Positions 14,268 to 62,147 of a stretch of 64,000 bases of DNA are shown one piece after another (positions within the stretch are counted from its first letter, which is position 1; every line of letters begins with the position of its first letter). The notes beneath the pieces were generated by a model that worked only from the letters and a program-made list of their open reading frames with translations, did no database searches and had not been told where the DNA came from. The position numbers and the translations under genes are program-made. Source of the stretch: a bacterium (GTDB lineage: Bacteria > Patescibacteriota > Patescibacteriia > UBA9934); contig JAGVNL010000026.1 of NCBI GenBank assembly GCA_020053275.1, positions 6,416 through 70,415 on the forward strand, in the 5' to 3' direction.

Positions 14268-16025
14268 TTATGGCAAGAATCCGCCAGCCTGGATGCTCCA
14301 AAGCTTATTATAAGTCCCTTCGCGTTCAATAAGCTCTTGGTGCGTACCAGTGTCAACTACTCTGCCCTTTTCTATAACGACGATCCTATTCATCTGCATA
14401 ATTGTAGAAAGACGGTGCGCGATAACAATAACAGTTTTGCTCTTCATTAGTTCTCGTAACGCATCCTGAATAAGCGACTCACTTTCACTATCAAGGCTGC
14501 TGGTAGCCTCGTCAAGAACAAGAATTGGCGCGTTCTTAAGAATTGCTCTAGCAATAGCAACCCGTTGTCGCTCACCACCAGAAAGCTTAATGCCCCGTTC
14601 ACCAACCTTGGTATCGTAGCCATGTGGCAATTCAGAAATAAACTCATGACAATGCGCTTTCTTACTGGCTGCAATCACTTCCTTATCACTAGCATCCCGC
14701 CGGCCATAACGAATATTCTCCATCACCGTCCGGTGAAATAGCAACGAATCCTGCGGCACGAGCGAAACAAGTGTTCGCAAACTATCCTGCGTCACTTTAC
14801 TAATATCCTGCCCATCAATAGTTATCAAGCCTCTTGAAACATCAAAAAATCTCATCAGTAGCTTAATTATCGTACTCTTTCCCGCCCCACTTGGCCCAAC
14901 AAAGGCCACCTTTTCTCGTGGCTTTATCTCGAGCGTCATGTCACTCAAAATTTCTCGCCCATCGCTATAACTAAACGACACCTTATGAAAGTTTATTTCA
15001 CCTTTTTTAACCATTAGCTTCTTAGCGCCCCTCTTATCAACTAACTCATACGGCATCTCAAGAATATCTACCATCTCTCTGGCCTCTGCAAAACCGTCAT
15101 ACAAATCGCGAATAACTCGACCAAAATCGAACAACCGAATAAACAAACCAATGAGCGCCGTCTGGATAAGAGCAAAATCACCAAGCGTTATGACACCAGC
15201 AACATACATATTGATAGCTACAAACATCGACACCGCGTTCAACAGCAACATAAAACCACCTTGCACAGCGTCGTTGATCACACCAAGATTCCAAGTAAAA
15301 ACCGCCATCCTGTGCCATCGACCGTTGACTTCCGCAAATCTCGCTTCCTCAAATTTCTTACCAACAAACTGCTGAATGGTCACAGCGTTACCCACCGCAT
15401 CAGCCAAAACTCCACTTGATTCCGTATCTAGCTCAGCCCGTTTTATATCCCATTTCAACTTCCACCTAGCAACCATGATATTAATAACAACAAACAGCAC
15501 TGCCCAAATGCTAAGTATAAACGCAAACAACGGACTACGAAGATAAAAAATAACAATCGTACCAACAATCGCCACTACAATCTGTATCAACTTCCAGGTC
15601 AGCAAGTCCATCAGCCGCTCAAAAGATCTGCCAAAACGGTGCACCTTTTTAACCAGTGAACCTGCAAAATTATCAGTGAAAAACCGGTACGAATGATTCA
15701 ATAAGTGCGCAAAAGCGGTCTGCTCAAGGTCGACGATAATCCGTGGCTGCAAATAGTTATTAAGAAAATCGGCAATACGGCGCACCACCCACATACCAAC
15801 ATCAAGCCCTACCATCAAGAACAGTACACCAAACAAAGTTGCTGCCAAAGCAGTCCCCGATTGGCCTGTCGCGAATGAGTCAAAAAACTTTTTACTTAAC
15901 AGCGCAGGTACCAAATTAGCTAAATCTAGCACCAGTAAAGCAACAATAAAAATCGAAAATCTAATCGGGTAGCGCCTAACATGAGCCCAATATATTTTGA
16001 TTGTTGGCCTAACAGATAATGACAT
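14268..16025 (-). CDS. ABC transporter, fused permease/ATPase (MsbA/exporter type)
   Basis: 585 aa. Six N-terminal TM helices, Walker A 'GPSGAGKST', signature 'LSGGERQRVAIARA', Walker B 'ILVLDEATS'. Confidence 0.9.
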   Translation of the reverse strand: MSLSVRPTIKIYWAHVRRYPIRFSIFIVALLVLDLANLVPALLSKKFFDSFATGQSGTALAATLFGVLFLMVGLDVGMWVVRRIADFLNNYLQPRIIVDLEQTAFAHLLNHSYRFFTDNFAGSLVKKVHRFGRSFERLMDLLTWKLIQIVVAIVGTIVIFYLRSPLFAFILSIWAVLFVVINIMVARWKLKWDIKRAELDTESSGVLADAVGNAVTIQQFVGKKFEEARFAEVNGRWHRMAVFTWNLGVINDAVQGGFMLLLNAVSMFVAINMYVAGVITLGDFALIQTALIGLFIRLFDFGRVIRDLYDGFAEAREMVDILEMPYELVDKRGAKKLMVKKGEINFHKVSFSYSDGREILSDMTLEIKPREKVAFVGPSGAGKSTIIKLLMRFFDVSRGLITIDGQDISKVTQDSLRTLVSLVPQDSLLFHRTVMENIRYGRRDASDKEVIAASKKAHCHEFISELPHGYDTKVGERGIKLSGGERQRVAIARAILKNAPILVLDEATSSLDSESESLIQDALRELMKSKTVIVIAHRLSTIMQMNRIVVIEKGRVVDTGTHQELIEREGTYNKLWSIQAGGFLP

Positions 16026-32675: not shown

Positions 32676-33655
32676 ACTTCGCGTTCGTTCTCTTCATTCA
32701 CAACAGCCACACTTGAACCGCGAGCATTACGCCTACGAACAACTATCACACTCAATAAGCAACCAATAGCCAACAGACCAAGCACAATGACCAAAATCTG
32801 AATGACTGGATTACTCAAACGCCAAAACGAAACCGTAGAATTACCTGGTTCTGCTTCAGCAGCTACGGCATTGTCAAAAATACCATACGCCTTATCTGGC
32901 CAAACTATTCCAGCCTTGGCGTTCGTCGAATCACTTGCTAATTCGGAGTTTGCAAAGGCTACAGCACTGCCAGTACTCGCACCATCAACTATGGAATTAG
33001 CTATAGTTGTCGGCGTTTGGGCTTCAGTGTTCTGTATCACCGTCTTAGCCAAAGTTACAGCTGGTGCAACAGCTACCGTCTTCACAGGAACAGCTGTTGG
33101 CAGCGGTGTCACCGGCGGGACGATTACTGGCTTAGGAGTATTGTCGACACTATCACAAGCGTCACCAATGCCATCATTATCAAGATCAGCCTGATCTGCA
33201 TTCGCGTTGTCCCGACAATTATCAACATCATCTAGCACACCATCTTTATCCGCATCAAGAATAGTCGCATAGAGCACGGTCATTGCAGAATCGTTACTTG
33301 AGTTCTGATCGGCTGGTACTGAACCAGCCAAAACTGCATAAATATTAAATGATGTACTTGGCAGTAAAAAGTCGACGAACACTTCTTCTGGTGCTCCACC
33401 CACTCGCAAGGAAACCGGCTGTGTAGCACCAACCACCTTAGAACCATTATAAAAAACCACACTCGCCTGCATATCAACATCGCCTAAATTGCGGACGCGA
33501 GCATAAATCCTGACAATATCGCCGCTATAAAAAGTAGACGAGGAGAAAGTAATGGAATTGTTATCAATCGCTATATCAGCAACTGCTGCCTGAGCTCGCG
33601 AAGGTAGCCAAAAAATAAAGAGGAGACTGAGAAAAAATAATCCTATTTTTTTCAT
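32672..33655 (-). CDS. cell-surface protein: signal peptide, CARDB-like beta domain, thrombospondin type-3 calcium-binding repeats, Pro/Thr/Ala linker, C-terminal TM anchor
   Basis: 'DKDGVLDDVDNCRDNANADQADLDNDGIGDACD' TSP3 repeats; 'VRIYARVRNLGDVDMQASVVFYNG' CARDB-like; C-terminal 'VIQILVIVLGLLAIGCLLSVIVVRRRN'. Confidence 0.6.
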   Translation of the reverse strand: MKKIGLFFLSLLFIFWLPSRAQAAVADIAIDNNSITFSSSTFYSGDIVRIYARVRNLGDVDMQASVVFYNGSKVVGATQPVSLRVGGAPEEVFVDFLLPSTSFNIYAVLAGSVPADQNSSNDSAMTVLYATILDADKDGVLDDVDNCRDNANADQADLDNDGIGDACDSVDNTPKPVIVPPVTPLPTAVPVKTVAVAPAVTLAKTVIQNTEAQTPTTIANSIVDGASTGSAVAFANSELASDSTNAKAGIVWPDKAYGIFDNAVAAEAEPGNSTVSFWRLSNPVIQILVIVLGLLAIGCLLSVIVVRRRNARGSSVAVVNEENEREV

Positions 33656-34227
33656 ACAACACGAAGTTTACCATGCACCACCCCGCTAATCCAATATTCG
33701 CGAGCAATATCTGGATGAATATGCAATCGCAAACGATAGCTTGGGTGCACGCGAACAATAATATTCGTCAATATAACTGGCTGGTCACCAATAATCTCCA
33801 CCTCCACAATCTTGCCGTTTGTCAGGTGTAAACTCGCCGCTTCCGTGTCAGAACAATGCAAATGCGCTTGCGGAATAATCACACTCGCTTCCGCCATAAC
33901 TTCCCCAGCTGGCCCAACCAAACGGCAAGTTGCAGCTCGACTAGCATCGCCGGACCTGGCAACTAGTGCATTCAAACCAAGCAAAGCCGCTTCTGTCGGC
34001 GTCAATTCAACTTGCGTATTCTGACGATACGGCCCAAGCACTCGTAAAGTTATTGATCGCTTGAGCTTACCAAAAACCTCAAGCGACTGTGCATAAGCGA
34101 ACTGCCCACTCTGCGCCAAGGTGTGAGTAATGGTCGACGCCATACCAACGCCAAACAACACCACCTGATGCTCTTCAGACAAGTGAATATGCGAAGGCAC
34201 GATTTCTATCGGAATAGGACGCGACAT
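33652..34227 (-). CDS. pduL: PduL/EutD-type phosphate acyltransferase
   Basis: Two PduL half-domains with 'PSHIHLSEEH' and 'PQAHLHCSDTE' (SxRHxH-like) motifs; ~190 aa. Confidence 0.65.
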   Translation of the reverse strand: MSRPIPIEIVPSHIHLSEEHQVVLFGVGMASTITHTLAQSGQFAYAQSLEVFGKLKRSITLRVLGPYRQNTQVELTPTEAALLGLNALVARSGDASRAATCRLVGPAGEVMAEASVIIPQAHLHCSDTEAASLHLTNGKIVEVEIIGDQPVILTNIIVRVHPSYRLRLHIHPDIAREYWISGVVHGKLRVV

Positions 34228-35068: not shown

Positions 35069-35641
35069 ATGACCATCCCCCTTCTCACCTTCCTCGCCCT
35101 CTTCACACCAACCGCCGCGGCTGGAGTGTCCGCCCAACTCAACATCAAAGTTGCAGGTAGCGCCAAACTCACGGAGAAGATTGACCTCGGCGTGTTCGCC
35201 AACGCCATGCTACTACCCGGTACCACCGCCTACTACTGCACCTACACTGGCCCAGGATTCCAGCTCACCCCGTGGTGGTGGGCAAGCCCCCGTGGTGGCG
35301 TCATCCTCAACTGGCCGGCCACCGGCCAAGCATCGCCCATCGCCTCGCTCTGGAACTACTTCACGCTCCACGGCGGCGACCTCTCGCTCTTCACGGAAAC
35401 CGAGGTATACCCGTTGCCAGGCGGCGGCGTTGACTACTTTGGCTTCTACCAGGCCGACTACAACTTCACGGCGCTGAGCCTTGGACTCATGGCGGAACAG
35501 GTGAACACGAGCATCACGGCTGGGCCAATAGTGTCTTACTCCTTCAACAAGAACCTGAGCGCTGGCGTGGAGTACCACCTCAACCCCCTCGACCTCACCG
35601 CCCAGACCATCCGCGGCAACCTGTCCCTCAAGTTCAACTGA
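35069..35641 (+). CDS. secreted beta-strand-rich protein of unknown function (high-GC islet)
   Basis: AGGAG Shine-Dalgarno 7 nt upstream. Signal peptide 'MTIPLLTFLALFTPTAAAG'. Alternating hydrophobic beta pattern, Trp/Tyr/Gly-rich, ends ...LSLKFN. About 62% GC with a G/C third-position bias. Confidence 0.55.
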   Translation: MTIPLLTFLALFTPTAAAGVSAQLNIKVAGSAKLTEKIDLGVFANAMLLPGTTAYYCTYTGPGFQLTPWWWASPRGGVILNWPATGQASPIASLWNYFTLHGGDLSLFTETEVYPLPGGGVDYFGFYQADYNFTALSLGLMAEQVNTSITAGPIVSYSFNKNLSAGVEYHLNPLDLTAQTIRGNLSLKFN

Positions 35642-35666
35642 CACCACGGTCAGTTTCCCTCTCCTA

Positions 35667-35709
35667 CGCCGCCCCAGAAGCCCTCGTGCTTCACGGGCGG
35701 CTTCTTAAT
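35667..35709 (+). terminator. rho-independent terminator after the beta-rich secreted protein gene
   Basis: gccgccc-[gaagc-cctcgt-gcttc]-gggcggc followed by ttcttaatt. Confidence 0.5.
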
Positions 35710-35737
35710 TACCAAAAATAAAGTATACTTGCAATAT

Positions 35738-36046
35738 ATGATAAATCCAAAAGAACAATTCCCAGCACTTCACGATTTCCTAAGTGCCTACTATCACGAA
35801 GACTGGAATGTGAACGCACAAACAGCAAATAATGTTATAATTCATTTTCTTTCCAACGCCAGTGCATCCGAAATTCCAACTCAAATCGCTGAAGAAATTG
35901 ATGAACTGCTCACAGCTAAAATTAATGATTCGGAACTAAACAACCTAATCTTCGATCATCTTGGTTGTTATTATAGCCCCGAAGCAGATAATCTAACCGT
36001 CCGAGACTGGCTCGCATCAATCGCGAAACAAATGCGTAATCATTAA
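35738..36046 (+). CDS. CdiI-like polymorphic-toxin immunity protein, candidate orphan immunity gene
   Basis: AT-rich (about 36% GC) gene inside a GC-rich islet. 'FPALHDFLSAYYHEDWNVN...ELNNLIFDHLGCYYSPEAD...RDWLASI' matches, from memory, the pattern of CDI-system immunity families (F/YxxAYFHQDW...LGxYY...W). TATACT sits 8 nt before the ATG. The ORF-track start is a TTG three codons earlier. Confidence 0.4.
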   Translation: MINPKEQFPALHDFLSAYYHEDWNVNAQTANNVIIHFLSNASASEIPTQIAEEIDELLTAKINDSELNNLIFDHLGCYYSPEADNLTVRDWLASIAKQMRNH

Positions 36047-36095
36047 AACAAAAGCGGACGCCCGACCCGAGAGTCGTGCGTCCAGTTGTTACCGC
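36046..36095. terminator. bidirectional rho-independent terminator between the CdiI-like gene and the convergent small ORF
   Basis: ggacgc-ccgacccgagagtcgt-gcgtcc. On the minus strand it is followed by gcttttgtttt. Confidence 0.5.
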
Positions 36096-36110
36096 CGTTG
36101 TTCTTGGCAG

Positions 36111-36377
36111 CTAGGCATGTCCCAACATCCGTACTCCATCCTCGCACCGCTGCTTCTCCGCCTCGAGATACCCGGACACATCGTAGGTCACAGGCACAGC
36201 ACCAAGCAGCTTGACGCGCTTCTCCCAGGCCGCCTTGATGATGTCATGGTCAGCCGGGATGGCAGTTCTCCGGTAGACGATGAGGTTGGCCAGGCAGGCC
36301 ATGTCGATCTCATCTGCCTCCTTGATCGCCTCGACGATCGACTTGTGGAAAGGCACCGGCTTCTTGTTCTCGTCCAT
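36111..36377 (-). CDS. small hypothetical protein (88 aa), GC-rich
   Basis: GGGAG Shine-Dalgarno 4 nt before the ATG, own terminator, no recognisable motif. The overlapping plus-strand ORF 36117-36419 was rejected. Confidence 0.45.
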   Translation of the reverse strand: MDENKKPVPFHKSIVEAIKEADEIDMACLANLIVYRRTAIPADHDIIKAAWEKRVKLLGAVPVTYDVSGYLEAEKQRCEDGVRMLGHA

Positions 36378-36443
36378 GACTCACTCCCTGATTGCAGGTT
36401 ACTTGCTCGGCCACCATAGCCTAAAGCAGGCTAAGACTAACAA

Positions 36444-36470
36444 ACAAAAAAGGCTCGGTCAACCCGAGTC
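36444..36470 (-). terminator. rho-independent terminator immediately after tRNA-Arg
   Basis: On the minus strand: ctcgg-gttga-ccgag followed by cctttttt. Confidence 0.5.
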
Positions 36471-36475
36471 TCTCT

Positions 36476-47628: not shown

Positions 47629-50178
47629 CTACAGGCCAACCGGAGGCAGGGGGACAACTGGTTGCACTTGTTTAGGCACACCGACGCCAGAACGCAGAGC
47701 AATCTCGCGCTCCACAATCTTCTTGTCGCGACCATAAAGCAAACGAGAAATTTCTTTGAGAGCCTGGCCAACTTTTGGACTGCCTTCTTGTTTATTGTCG
47801 ACGCGAAGTGTAAACGGCTTACCCTGAGCGTTGTCGATGATAATCTTACAATTCCATGTTAACGCCTCATTATTCATCAGGTCGTAAGCAGAAAATGTAG
47901 GCTCAAACACTTTCTCCAGTACCTCGGTATCATCAGGGCCGACACGCGACACAAACATGCTGCCCACATTGCCGAGCACAGCATCACGAATCTCACTCTT
48001 GCCGTCCTTCACCAACTGGCCCATATACTGGTGCGCCATGATCAAGTTAAGACGATACTTACGAGCCTCGGACAAAATAGTAGCAATACTTGGCGTCACG
48101 AAGTTTTGGAATTCGTCGACATAAAGATAAAAATCTTTGCGTTTACTCTCCTCCATATCAGCACGAGCAAAAGCCGCCATCTGCAACTTGGCCACAATAA
48201 TCAAACCAAGCAGCGACGCATTAACTTCGCCAGTTTTACCTTTAGACAAATTGACCAAAAGAATCTTACCCTCGTCCATTATTTCACGGAAGTTGAAGGC
48301 GGATTTACTTTGACCGATAATGTTACGCATCATCTCGTTCTCCACAAACCTACCAACCTTACTCACTAGATATCCCATGGTTTCACTCTTGTGGTAGTCA
48401 CTAGTCTTGGCCTGCTCATCCTCCCAGAAACTACGCACAACAGGGTCCTTAACACGAGCAATCCACTCCTTCTGGAAAGCGTCGTCCGCAATCATGCGTG
48501 GGATTTCTGCAATCGTACCAGGGTAAGTCGGGTCCGCCATCAAGGTAAGCATGAAGTTACGCATGGAGTGCTCAAACATCGGGCCGATCATTTCCGGTGG
48601 GAACAACATATAGAAGATGCTGATCATCTCCTGCACCGCAAAGTCGCGCATGTCCTCACTTGGTGCCTCCAGCATGTTTAAGCCCATTGGTCGTTCGGTA
48701 TCGCTTGGGTTGAAGTAAACAACATCATCGTATCGTTCTTTTGGAATAAGCTCCATTATGCCGTCTGCCAAGTCTCCGTGCGGATCAATAACACCAACAC
48801 CTTTACCAGCAATAATATCTTGAATAACCAAGTTCTTAATAAACTCAGACTTACCAGAACCAGTCTTACCAATAATGTACATGTGGCGACGGCGGTCACC
48901 GTCTTTGATAAATACTGGTTTTGTAGCGCCGCGATAGGTGTTGGTACCCAAACGCAAACCTTCAGTTGGCGTGTTAGTTGGGGCCGGGGCGACACGCGCC
49001 ATCATCCACAAAATATTCGGCGTATCAGTACTTGGCAACGGCAAATGCCACATAGACGCCATTTCTTCGGTATTCAAAATAATTTTCTGATACCTGGCAA
49101 AAGTACGATAAATGAAGTGCTCGATTAAACGGCGCTTGCGGAGCGGCAACACCTTCTGCAAGGAGTTACCATACTCATAAATGTTATATTGACCGAACGC
49201 TTGCAATGCATTGTTTAGGTTCGCCAACGCCATTTGAGCGGATTTCGCCGAAGAAACGATGCGAATATTTACTTCCATTCCGGCCTTAGAAATTTTATTT
49301 CCAACTCCCTCCAACATCTTAGATTCCGTTTGTGACAACTGTTTTTGATCTCTTCGTTCAGACTTTTGTTTCTCAATATCTTCTTTACTCGCAAACCAGC
49401 TACCAACAGTTTTACCCTTTTTCGCTTCTTCAAGCGACATGCCATTCTGCATGTTCCTTATAATCTTAGTACCCAGTTCACGCCAATTATGGTGAGTTGG
49501 GCGAATAATATATTGTACTACCAAACCATCGCCTTCTTCTACCTTAGACAAAGCATTGGTTAATGAATTCAACGGGTCTGAATCATTTTCTTTATAAGTC
49601 TTGAGAGGGAAAATAGACTCTCGTTTCAACTCTAAATAGCCGCCGAGAACAATGCCAGTAGTTGAAAAAATATTATAATCCTCAACCTCCTTCAAGCTGG
49701 CGTCACTATACTGAGCGTGCAACTGCTGCTGCACAAAATCATACATGTTGCGCGGTACATTAATGTAAAAAGAAACGAGCTTGTTATGAGCTACAATTTC
49801 TAATGCAATGGAATCTGTTCTCCCAGCAAACCAAGCATGAATACCAAAACCATGATGTGGTTTTACGCCACCAATAGCCGCAAAAAAAGTTTCCGCAATA
49901 GCAATCGACTCCTTAATAACTTGTGCTGTTTCATTACCCTTAGCTTCTTCTTGGTTGCGGTACCGAGGAATGGTTACTAGTAATGTAATGTTGGTATGCT
50001 TGCCTCCCTGCTGTCTAAACCTGCGATGCATCTTGTAACGCAACAGAAATATACCGCCAATTATTGCCCCAACAATCAGCAAAGCAATTATTAAACGCAA
50101 CCAAATGGACGAGCCACCGGTTGCAACATACTGTGTAGTTGCTACTTCGCCTGCAATGAGAAATAAGCCTGGAAGCAC
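47629..50178 (-). CDS. type IV secretion-type ATPase (VirD4/TraG/TraD coupling-protein-like or VirB4-like) with two N-terminal TM helices
   Basis: 849 aa. Two N-terminal TM helices, Walker A 'IIGKTGSGKSEF' at roughly residue 430, Walker B 'LYVDEFQNF' (a T4CP-like DEFxN). Confidence 0.5.
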   Translation of the reverse strand: MLPGLFLIAGEVATTQYVATGGSSIWLRLIIALLIVGAIIGGIFLLRYKMHRRFRQQGGKHTNITLLVTIPRYRNQEEAKGNETAQVIKESIAIAETFFAAIGGVKPHHGFGIHAWFAGRTDSIALEIVAHNKLVSFYINVPRNMYDFVQQQLHAQYSDASLKEVEDYNIFSTTGIVLGGYLELKRESIFPLKTYKENDSDPLNSLTNALSKVEEGDGLVVQYIIRPTHHNWRELGTKIIRNMQNGMSLEEAKKGKTVGSWFASKEDIEKQKSERRDQKQLSQTESKMLEGVGNKISKAGMEVNIRIVSSAKSAQMALANLNNALQAFGQYNIYEYGNSLQKVLPLRKRRLIEHFIYRTFARYQKIILNTEEMASMWHLPLPSTDTPNILWMMARVAPAPTNTPTEGLRLGTNTYRGATKPVFIKDGDRRRHMYIIGKTGSGKSEFIKNLVIQDIIAGKGVGVIDPHGDLADGIMELIPKERYDDVVYFNPSDTERPMGLNMLEAPSEDMRDFAVQEMISIFYMLFPPEMIGPMFEHSMRNFMLTLMADPTYPGTIAEIPRMIADDAFQKEWIARVKDPVVRSFWEDEQAKTSDYHKSETMGYLVSKVGRFVENEMMRNIIGQSKSAFNFREIMDEGKILLVNLSKGKTGEVNASLLGLIIVAKLQMAAFARADMEESKRKDFYLYVDEFQNFVTPSIATILSEARKYRLNLIMAHQYMGQLVKDGKSEIRDAVLGNVGSMFVSRVGPDDTEVLEKVFEPTFSAYDLMNNEALTWNCKIIIDNAQGKPFTLRVDNKQEGSPKVGQALKEISRLLYGRDKKIVEREIALRSGVGVPKQVQPVVPLPPVGL

Positions 50179-50179
50179 A

Positions 50180-50689
50180 TTATATTGCGTTCATGCTATG
50201 GTGAGCTTTGCCTTCACCGTAAGCGATAATAAGATCTGTCTTAATCTTAGCCTCCTGCTCAAGGAAAAACCGATTGATACCAGGAATACTGTGCAGCCAC
50301 TCCTTAATCATTTTAAGTACGGCGTGAACCTTTATTTTTCCTTTGGCAATCATCTCCCTTATTTTGTGCGCAACTTCCTCACCCTTCGCTCTAAACTTTG
50401 GTTTTCTATCTTCCGCTAAATTCTTATACAAATCAGCTATACCTTTAGACAATATATCCTCAACGCCCTTCAGAATCTCATCCTTAGCTAAAACAACAGG
50501 AGCTTCAGAAATTGTCGTAGCGACTGGAACTGTTACCGGTGCCTGTTCCTCCTCCGGAACATTCTCAACACCACTATCTTCCCCCTCCCGACCCAACGAT
50601 TCCTGTTCCACCTCTTGAGCCTCAACAATGCCCGGTACTTCCGGGTTCAGCATATTGACGCCTAACTTTTCCATTACTTCATCACTCAT
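50180..50689 (-). CDS. hypothetical protein, acidic N-terminus; possibly coupled to the upstream ATPase gene
   Basis: 169 aa. 1-nt spacing to the downstream gene suggests co-transcription. Confidence 0.45.
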   Translation of the reverse strand: MSDEVMEKLGVNMLNPEVPGIVEAQEVEQESLGREGEDSGVENVPEEEQAPVTVPVATTISEAPVVLAKDEILKGVEDILSKGIADLYKNLAEDRKPKFRAKGEEVAHKIREMIAKGKIKVHAVLKMIKEWLHSIPGINRFFLEQEAKIKTDLIIAYGEGKAHHSMNAI

Positions 50690-52115: not shown

Positions 52116-52601
52116 CTAACCGCGCAACAAGGCCATCGTAACCAACGGCGCAAAAATTAAAATCGAACGAATAATCGGATCCATAAAGACCCGAGCAAAG
52201 TTTGGTGAAAAGTCACCAGTTACTGCTAATGGCAGCATAGTTACCAAAATGACTACAACTACAATCACTTGCAATAACGAATAAACAGCTACGCGCCAGC
52301 CATGCGGATTATATACATCGTCAAAAAAAGTACTGCGCGCCAAAACGAACATCATGAGCGCCGTCATAATAGCCAATAAACCGAGCGACAACCATAAACT
52401 TGGAATTGGTATTAAAGTTTTCAGCATGGCCAGGACTGGCGCCAACAAAATAACCGCCCCAGCCAAGTACAACGCCACGAGCAGCATGATGATCCTGTAC
52501 TTACCGATAGTGTAGTTGTAAAACAACAGCACTCCAAACAAAATCACGACCGCACCAACATCAACTGGTACGCCAGCCACTAATGTATGCAAGACCTCCA
52601 T
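52116..52601 (-). CDS. small polytopic membrane protein, unknown function
   Basis: 161 aa, four or five hydrophobic helices. Confidence 0.45.
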   Translation of the reverse strand: MEVLHTLVAGVPVDVGAVVILFGVLLFYNYTIGKYRIIMLLVALYLAGAVILLAPVLAMLKTLIPIPSLWLSLGLLAIMTALMMFVLARSTFFDDVYNPHGWRVAVYSLLQVIVVVVILVTMLPLAVTGDFSPNFARVFMDPIIRSILIFAPLVTMALLRG

Positions 52602-61397: not shown

Positions 61398-62147
61398 ATG
61401 TCCATCGAACTCGTCAAAACTGAGCCAGCCAACCCAACCTCACAGGACGACAACACGAGCCTGGAACTCCACGGCCTCATGCCTCGCCCGTATATCGACA
61501 TCGTCCTCGAGCACCTAGCACTGCTCGCCGACACTCCCCGTTGCGACTGGCTGGCCGGCAATGTCCCCTTCGGCCAGTTGCCTCCCAACCTGCAGGGTCT
61601 CGCCGAGCTGCTGATCTGCGACGAGCTGGCCTGTCTGATTGGCCTGTTCATCCCCGAGGGCATCCGCGCCACCACCTGCAACAAGATCGTGCGCTACCTC
61701 AAGGCCATCAGCAAGAAGGTCAGCGGGATCGACAACCGTCTGTGCGTTGCCCTCGCCATCACCTGGTTCAACGACTACCGACGAGACAGGCAGAGCCTCA
61801 GTCCACAGATCCTCGACGCCGATCAGCGTGCCATCAACGCCATCACGGCGCTGAACCACGAGCCGCTAGCTCGCTGGTCGTTCAACAGTCGTACCTACAA
61901 GGAGCTCAACTCTGAGGGCAATGTGGCTATCCACGACTTGGTGGAGAACACCGTCGTCTGGCGCATCGACCGTATGGTCAAGCGAGTAGAGATCCCGGCC
62001 AGCCGCCGCCCCGCCACCTGCCATCGCCTGATCAGCGAGCTCAAGCATCTCAACGACTGGCGCGTCAGTAGAGCCTCGAACCGTCAGGTTGTTCTGCACA
62101 ACCAGGTCTGGCTCGCCCGCTACCGTGAAGGGTTGCTGCGGCCATGA
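61398..62147 (+). CDS. hypothetical protein in a high-GC islet
   Basis: 249 aa, GGAG 8 nt upstream, own terminator, strongly GC3-biased codons (ctc, gac, ggc, atc, aag). Confidence 0.5.
   Translation: MSIELVKTEPANPTSQDDNTSLELHGLMPRPYIDIVLEHLALLADTPRCDWLAGNVPFGQLPPNLQGLAELLICDELACLIGLFIPEGIRATTCNKIVRYLKAISKKVSGIDNRLCVALAITWFNDYRRDRQSLSPQILDADQRAINAITALNHEPLARWSFNSRTYKELNSEGNVAIHDLVENTVVWRIDRMVKRVEIPASRRPATCHRLISELKHLNDWRVSRASNRQVVLHNQVWLARYREGLLRP

Follow-up and report, generated by a model that had tools for sequence, protein, structure and literature searches.

Why does an Uhrbacteria-like CPR bacterium from groundwater, with a small genome, carry a gene for a CdiI-type immunity protein with no toxin beside it, how did the gene reach its present position, and what might it do there? 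We approached these questions within the window, by which we mean the whole 64-kb stretch of DNA that was analysed. The gene was first assigned to the immunity families of contact-dependent inhibition by a first-pass annotation made from the sequence alone, and its identity is considered first.

35738–36046, plus strand: CdiI_2 immunity gene; cytoplasmic protein of 102 aa with eight helices

The open reading frame runs from the ATG at 35738 to the TAA at 36044–36046 (sequence and ORF list). The first-pass annotation had placed this frame correctly; the protein is 102 aa long, and the 103 aa given for it counts the stop codon. The two motifs on which the assignment was founded, FPALHDFLSAYYHEDW and LGCYYSPEADNLTVRDWL, are both present in the protein exactly as described. 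They are more than a chance resemblance, as the protein matches Pfam CdiI_2 (PF18593) with E = 2.3e-20 and 73.6 bits against a gathering cut-off of 26.7 bits. The HMM search of the Pfam CdiI and Imm families proposed as a check has in this way given a significant match over the full length of the profile (positions 1–91 of 91), and the precomputed Pfam assignment of the protein is also PF18593. A match was further obtained to chain 5e3e_A, the CdiI of Yersinia kristensenii (E = 5e-9). Residue conservation was read from a family alignment of 41 sequences. The invariant columns Y79 and W91 are kept in the window protein, as are the near-invariant L11, Y18, H20, D22, W23, L67, G76, C77, P81 and L92, so that all 12 such positions are retained; the family motifs AYxHxDW, LGCYYxP (G-C-x-Y-x-P) and the C-terminal WL are likewise all kept. 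The AlphaFold (AF2) model built from the same alignment has a pLDDT of 95 and consists of eight helices. When this model was compared with the PDB using Foldseek, the sole significant matches were 5e3e_A and 5e3e_C (TM 0.83–0.89, rmsd 1.5–1.6 Å). Sequence, motif and fold show that the protein is a genuine, very divergent member of the CdiI_2 family, and the original assignment is borne out by Pfam, by PDB entry 5E3E and by the predicted fold.

The CdiI of Y. kristensenii ATCC 33638 (PDB 5E3E) is the founding structure of CdiI_2. The window protein belongs to the same length class (102 aa, compared with a 5E3E chain of 104 aa in which Met1–Asn98 are resolved), its model has the same eight-helix globular fold and the mechanism is presumably shared. 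The two differ in sequence, with 28–29% identity in the structural alignment, and in setting: the window gene does not stand behind cdiA, neither CdiB nor CdiA was seen, and the gene belongs to a CPR bacterium instead of a proteobacterium. The eight-helix Y. kristensenii CdiI covers the active site of its RNase A-fold toxin and blocks access of RNA (PMC5435912). By analogy, the window protein would bind an RNase A-fold toxin (PF18431) over the active-site cleft and would block RNA access in the same manner.

The usual genetic context of the family was established from the 80 best homologous CdiI_2 loci of GTDB species representatives. In 66 of the 80 loci the immunity gene directly follows the end of a PF18431 (RNAse_A_bac) toxin domain, at a distance of a few tens of bases at most; 13 loci contain no toxin, and the last is an immunity array whose toxin is distant. 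Pfam PF18431 was matched by 58 of the 61 closely upstream ORFs. Ten upstream ORFs were scanned in full and nine carry the toxin domain; one is a TPS/CdiA protein, one an Rhs protein, one a WXG100-like type VII substrate, and the remaining six are ORFs of 140–625 aa with no other Pfam domain. The tenth (L033) matches only an unrelated family.

The window presents a different picture. A profile built from these toxins found nothing in the six frames of the 64-kb window (best E = 1.4). The CdiI_2 immunity profile found the single gene only (E = 1e-37), and there is no second immunity gene in the 64 kb. As the six-frame toxin search was empty, the gene counts as an orphan within the limits of the 64-kb window; about one in six (13/80) of the homologous loci examined are likewise orphans. 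The first-pass observation that no toxin C-terminal domain lies upstream therefore holds. The broader search for toxin domains suggested at the time was run with the PF18431 profile and was empty, its reach being the 64-kb window of a genome of about 1 Mb. The genes flanking the locus are conserved housekeeping or uncharacterised genes (GT2, PTAC, MurJ, SpoU, RlmD, Era), and among them we found neither a CdiA with TPS domain nor a CdiB beside the immunity gene, as a CDI locus would have. CPR bacteria are not known to have the outer membrane that a CdiB/CdiA/CdiI system needs. Nor does the locus have the look of a defence island, with several immunity genes and mobility genes, there being one CdiI_2 copy in the window.

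The position of the gene can be judged against two related contigs, L001 and L003, which share the gene order of the window: AlaRS, DUF218, MurJ, PTAC, GT2, the 190-aa gene, a variable slot and then the tRNA side. To the right of the slot all three have tRNA-Arg(CCG), SpoU methylase, an RlmD-like gene and Era. The slot lies between the 190-aa gene and tRNA-Arg(CCG) and comprises 35642–36475 in the window, L001:6574–7348 and L003:6556–7221.

35069–35641, plus strand: 190-aa gene with a signal-peptide-like N-terminus; syntenic core neighbour, outside the immunity module
35668–35710, plus strand: left hairpin with CTTCTTAATT; arms 35668–35681 and 35688–35701 (inverted repeat I1)
36046–36083, minus strand: right hairpin (36056–36083) with the minus-strand T-tract CTTTTGTTTT; match of the terminator scan
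36111–36377, minus strand: 88-aa gene, convergent with the CdiI gene; shortened homolog of the 140-aa gene of L003
36476–36552, minus strand: tRNA-Arg(CCG), found by ARAGORN and Rfam; conserved right-hand anchor of the slot
Slot cargo in the window: CdiI gene (plus strand) and 88-aa gene (minus strand)
Slot cargo in L003: 140-aa gene (minus strand), homologous to the 88-aa gene
Slot cargo in L001: unrelated 195-aa membrane protein, 38% GC

The tRNA-Arg(CCG) is found at the same place in L001, L003 and L004. The left hairpin (dG −23.3 kcal/mol, z −4.5) is conserved in L001 and L003, and in DNA alignments the sequence similarity stops right behind it; it probably ends transcription of the 190-aa gene as an intrinsic terminator, and it bounds the variable slot on the left. 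At the other edge of the inserted segment stands the right hairpin, which terminates the convergent 88-aa gene and has a dG of about −20 kcal/mol whichever strand is folded. L003 keeps it too, and there some 28 nt separate the two hairpins, with no CdiI gene between them. In the window the two hairpins enclose about 340 bp of 39% GC with the CdiI gene as the sole ORF. The CdiI ORF has a GC of 0.39 and a GC3 of 0.32, and both its neighbours have a GC of 0.59–0.61 and a GC3 of about 0.8. Compared with the genes of the window as a whole (mean GC 0.48, sd 0.046; GC3 0.50), CdiI lies about 2 sd below the mean, and a few native window genes are just as AT-rich.

Because the conserved hairpins are about 28 nt apart in L003, because the segment contrasts in composition and because the cargo of the slot varies, the CdiI segment is most likely a small horizontal insertion between two convergent terminators, as judged from three genomes without an outgroup. 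The segment of about 340 bp and 39% GC would most likely have arrived by horizontal transfer into the slot beside tRNA-Arg(CCG). A possible alternative is that the CdiI gene was present ancestrally and was lost in L001 and L003. No integrase or transposase is visible with the insert or slot, and target-site duplications or inverted repeats around the insert were sought, giving only short imperfect repeats that are not convincing.

Several further observations concern this region. An imperfect direct repeat, AAACAAATGCG (36026–36036) and AAACAAAAGCG (36046–36056), straddles the CdiI stop codon and the right insert junction, and L003 has a single AAACAAAAAAAGCG at the matching place; the repeat may be insertion microhomology or chance. 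The 88-aa protein is 36% identical to the L003 140-aa protein over 80 aa (BLASTP, E = 7e-15) and is shortened at its C-terminus relative to this homolog; the GC3 values are 0.80 and 0.77 respectively. It belongs to no Pfam, NCBIfam or PHROG family; one source names it 'DUF608 family', and no Pfam match backs that name. The genes of the window with a GC of about 0.6 and GC3 of about 0.8 are 35069–35641, 36111–36377 and 61398–62147, and the same high-GC3 bias is seen in the relatives at L001:6001–6573, L003:6001–6555 and L003:6689–7111. The 249-aa gene at 61398–62147 shares this bias without sequence similarity to the 190-aa protein. An 849-aa protein (47629–50178, minus strand) matches type IV secretion coupling proteins (T4SS-DNA_transf, TrwB_AAD_bind, TraG-D_C), which hints at a conjugation- or DNA-uptake-type machine and so at a conceivable route of gene gain.

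The hexamer TATACT, reported at first pass to precede the ATG by 8 nt, was confirmed.

35724–35729, plus strand: TATACT, −10-like hexamer; 8 nt (35730–35737) before the ATG

There is no Shine-Dalgarno motif between TATACT and the ATG, and the putative mRNA folds hardly at all over its first 80 nt (−1 kcal/mol). The best −35 candidate is TTCTTA (16-nt spacer, three of six matches); the −35 region is poor and overlaps the tail of the preceding terminator. The sigma-70 scan called no promoter at TATACT, and a hexamer alone is weak evidence. The arrangement is enriched among the genes of the window: 10 of 58 have a −10-like hexamer 4–12 nt before the start against 2.3 expected (binomial P = 8e-5), the gaps cluster at 6, 8 and 9 nt with that of CdiI among them, and a loose Shine-Dalgarno match is found in only about 10 of 63 window ORFs. 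From the sequence, this suggests that leaderless expression is widespread in the host genome. We note as examples of TATAAT-like boxes those of 7318, 14268–16025, 33652–34227, 50180–50689 and 52116–52601 (the last four on the minus strand).

Genes of the leaderless kind, whose −10 box stands a few bases ahead of the start codon, are known from Actinobacteria, Deinococcus and others. The CdiI gene resembles them in having TATACT 8 nt before the ATG, no Shine-Dalgarno motif and an unstructured 5′ end, and it falls within the leaderless class when this is defined by a −10 box 6–10 nt before the start and no Shine-Dalgarno. It differs in being known from predicted start geometry and in its poor −35 region. 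The near-leaderless promoter described in the first-pass annotation is thus plausible as a prediction; such a transcript would follow the usual style of this genome and does not set CdiI apart. The CdiI gene would probably form its own transcription unit from the −10 box 8 nt upstream, with a leaderless or near-leaderless mRNA.

Taken as a whole, we think it fairly probable that the locus holds a horizontally acquired orphan CdiI_2 immunity gene, forming its own near-leaderless unit and having a protective role. The protein would shield a small-genome CPR cell from RNase toxins injected or secreted by neighbours or by the host, and not from a toxin of its own. Orphan immunity genes are an established route to resist the toxins of neighbours, and orphan or acquired interbacterial defence genes reportedly occur in Bacteroidales. 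The window gene is like these in being toxin-less, apparently horizontally gained and expected to protect from foreign toxins; it differs in being a single gene with no array, island or mobility gene and in its CPR host. The CdiA/TPS, Rhs and WXG100-like (type VII) proteins that carry the toxin domain are a plausible threat, and the type VII carriers of PF18431 matter for cells without an outer membrane. A preprint describes the use of Esx/type VII secretion by actinobacterial hosts to limit Saccharibacteria (PMC13622651), which makes a defensive role of the window CdiI conceivable. Counting against the acquired and protective gene are its GC, only about 2 sd below the window mean, the sigma-70 scan that called no promoter, an insert with no mobile-element gene, a gain drawn from three genomes without an outgroup and the usual restriction of an immunity protein to the toxin with which it is paired.

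The same facts could describe what is left of a past transfer, a gene now silent or in decay and without a function, and this we regard as unlikely. The gene is a singleton with no close relative, so that purifying selection is not measurable; the support for its promoter is a consensus match only, and the shortening of the adjacent 88-aa gene suggests a decaying region. Against decay, the ORF is intact and of full length relative to the family model, none of the 12 invariant or near-invariant positions has been lost, the confidence of the structural model is high (pLDDT 95) and the start context is like that of native genes.

The distance of the protein from its relatives bears on a further possibility, namely that the CdiI fold has been recruited for another role, for example with a different partner, and no longer confers toxin immunity. 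The window CdiI is a singleton at 90% identity in a collection of 5.8 billion clusters. When 1.84 billion representatives, which cover about 15 billion proteins, were searched exhaustively with HMMER, 894 relatives emerged at E ≤ 1e-3, none of them above 45% identity. The nearest named relatives (39–43% identity) belong to filamentous cyanobacteria (Microcoleus, Tychonema, Kamptonema), and others to Proteobacteria, Dormibacterota, Actinobacteria and further phyla. Neither the 80 best GTDB loci nor the 120 CdiI_2 proteins listed include a Patescibacteria name, and no exact 24-mer of the gene was found in the metagenome contigs scanned. The cyanobacterial proteins are, like the window CdiI, single-domain and of about 100 aa. 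They differ in context, the genes of L006 (Microcoleus) and L008 (Kamptonema) following an ORF of 140–184 aa that ends in PF18431, which the window gene does not; that of L022 (Coleofasciculus) has a 166-aa ORF upstream. An identity of at most 45% to any relative, in a lineage where CdiI_2 is otherwise unseen, leaves room for recruitment, but the AYxHxDW, LGCYYxP and WL positions are all retained and neither a fusion nor a new neighbour points to another function. Recruitment is improbable.

Equally, the protein could serve ordinary self-immunity if its RNase A-like toxin were encoded elsewhere in the genome, beyond the window. The window covers 64 kb of a 74-kb contig in a genome of about 1 Mb, and one of the 80 homologous loci does have its toxin at a distance, within an immunity array. 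Set against this, 66 of the 80 have the toxin almost adjoining the immunity gene, a few tens of bases upstream at most; where it would stand, the window has a terminator and an unrelated gene, both conserved; and no Patescibacteria were seen among the named CdiI_2 members listed. We consider a remote toxin of this kind a poor prospect.

There remains the gene immediately upstream, for which the first-pass annotation had raised the idea of an unrecognised small toxin partner. The gene at 35069–35641 does encode 190 aa, as had been described, and the protein has a hydrophobic N-terminus (MTIPLLTFLALFTPTAAAGVSAQ). Homologs of 79%, 78% and 52% identity were found, one of the closer pair coming from a Candidatus Uhrbacteria of groundwater, and there are no relatives in the metagenome contigs scanned. 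In L001 and L003, both of which are without CdiI, the gene stands between GT2 and tRNA-Arg. Its GC is 0.61 and its GC3 0.81, and the GC3 bias is kept in all relatives. No Pfam family was found for the protein, Porin_1 at E = 0.15 being noise; NCBIfam has no model for it, for CdiI or for the 88-aa gene. An AF2 model built from four sequences reached a pLDDT of only 30. That this protein is a novel small toxin with the CdiI-like gene as its immunity partner is very improbable: the genes are neighbours with a shared orientation, and the protein has a signal-peptide-like N-terminus, matches no Pfam or NCBIfam family and gave no usable structure, but the gene is 78–79% identical and in the same position in two contigs without CdiI, where a toxin lacking its immunity gene would harm its own cell, between the two genes stands a conserved hairpin of −23 kcal/mol, their compositions are opposite (GC3 0.81 versus 0.32), the protein has no similarity to PF18431 and it looks exported, while CdiI_2 proteins act on RNases in the cytoplasm. 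We have rejected it as a toxin on the grounds of synteny without CdiI, the terminator, composition, its exported look and the lack of PF18431, and the proposal of a toxin partner upstream is unsupported.

A phage origin of CdiI was also considered and is unsupported. Viral contigs scanned with the CdiI family alignment gave no relatives, and the only PHROG match is weak, to a function-less family (phrog_16822, E = 6e-5).

Returning to the acquired, protective immunity gene, the orphan immunity gene is a type already known; what is new is a divergent member whose host lineage is unusual: the bacterium is an Uhrbacteria-like CPR organism of small genome, and no other named CdiI_2 member was seen in such bacteria. 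The event is also unusually clean, amounting to about 340 bp and one ORF between two convergent terminators. More tentatively, and as a possibility only, we suggest that a CPR cell, dependent as such cells are on intimate contact with other bacteria, took up a lone immunity gene of foreign descent from a lineage unrelated to its own, gave it a leaderless-type start and survives by it the RNase A-like toxins of its host or neighbours, delivered for example by type VII, Rhs or CDI carriers. If true, this would be acquired interbacterial defence in Patescibacteria; a limited full-text literature search found no earlier report of orphan immunity in this group. Such capture would fit the use of Esx/type VII secretion by hosts against Saccharibacteria (PMC13622651). 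If the gene is functional, CPR bacteria would join the toxin–immunity arms race as defenders, which bears on the survival of epibionts or symbionts upon armed hosts or close to them. The locus would, moreover, be a small case of a foreign gene gaining a working start in a genome largely without Shine-Dalgarno sites.

Finally, we note two features of the wider family. Some CdiI_2 homologs are evidently misnamed at source (P0167, P0180, P0188, P0259), examples being 'phenylalanyl-tRNA synthetase beta subunit' and 'HD superfamily phosphohydrolase YqeK'. Others, P0007 (539 aa), P0008 (518 aa), P0009 and P0010, contain tandem CdiI_2 domains, two to four per polypeptide, and in Mycolicibacterium three consecutive CdiI_2 genes stand behind a degenerate toxin (L024:5249–6806); these multi-domain proteins and the Mycolicibacterium row look like fused or arrayed immunity modules.
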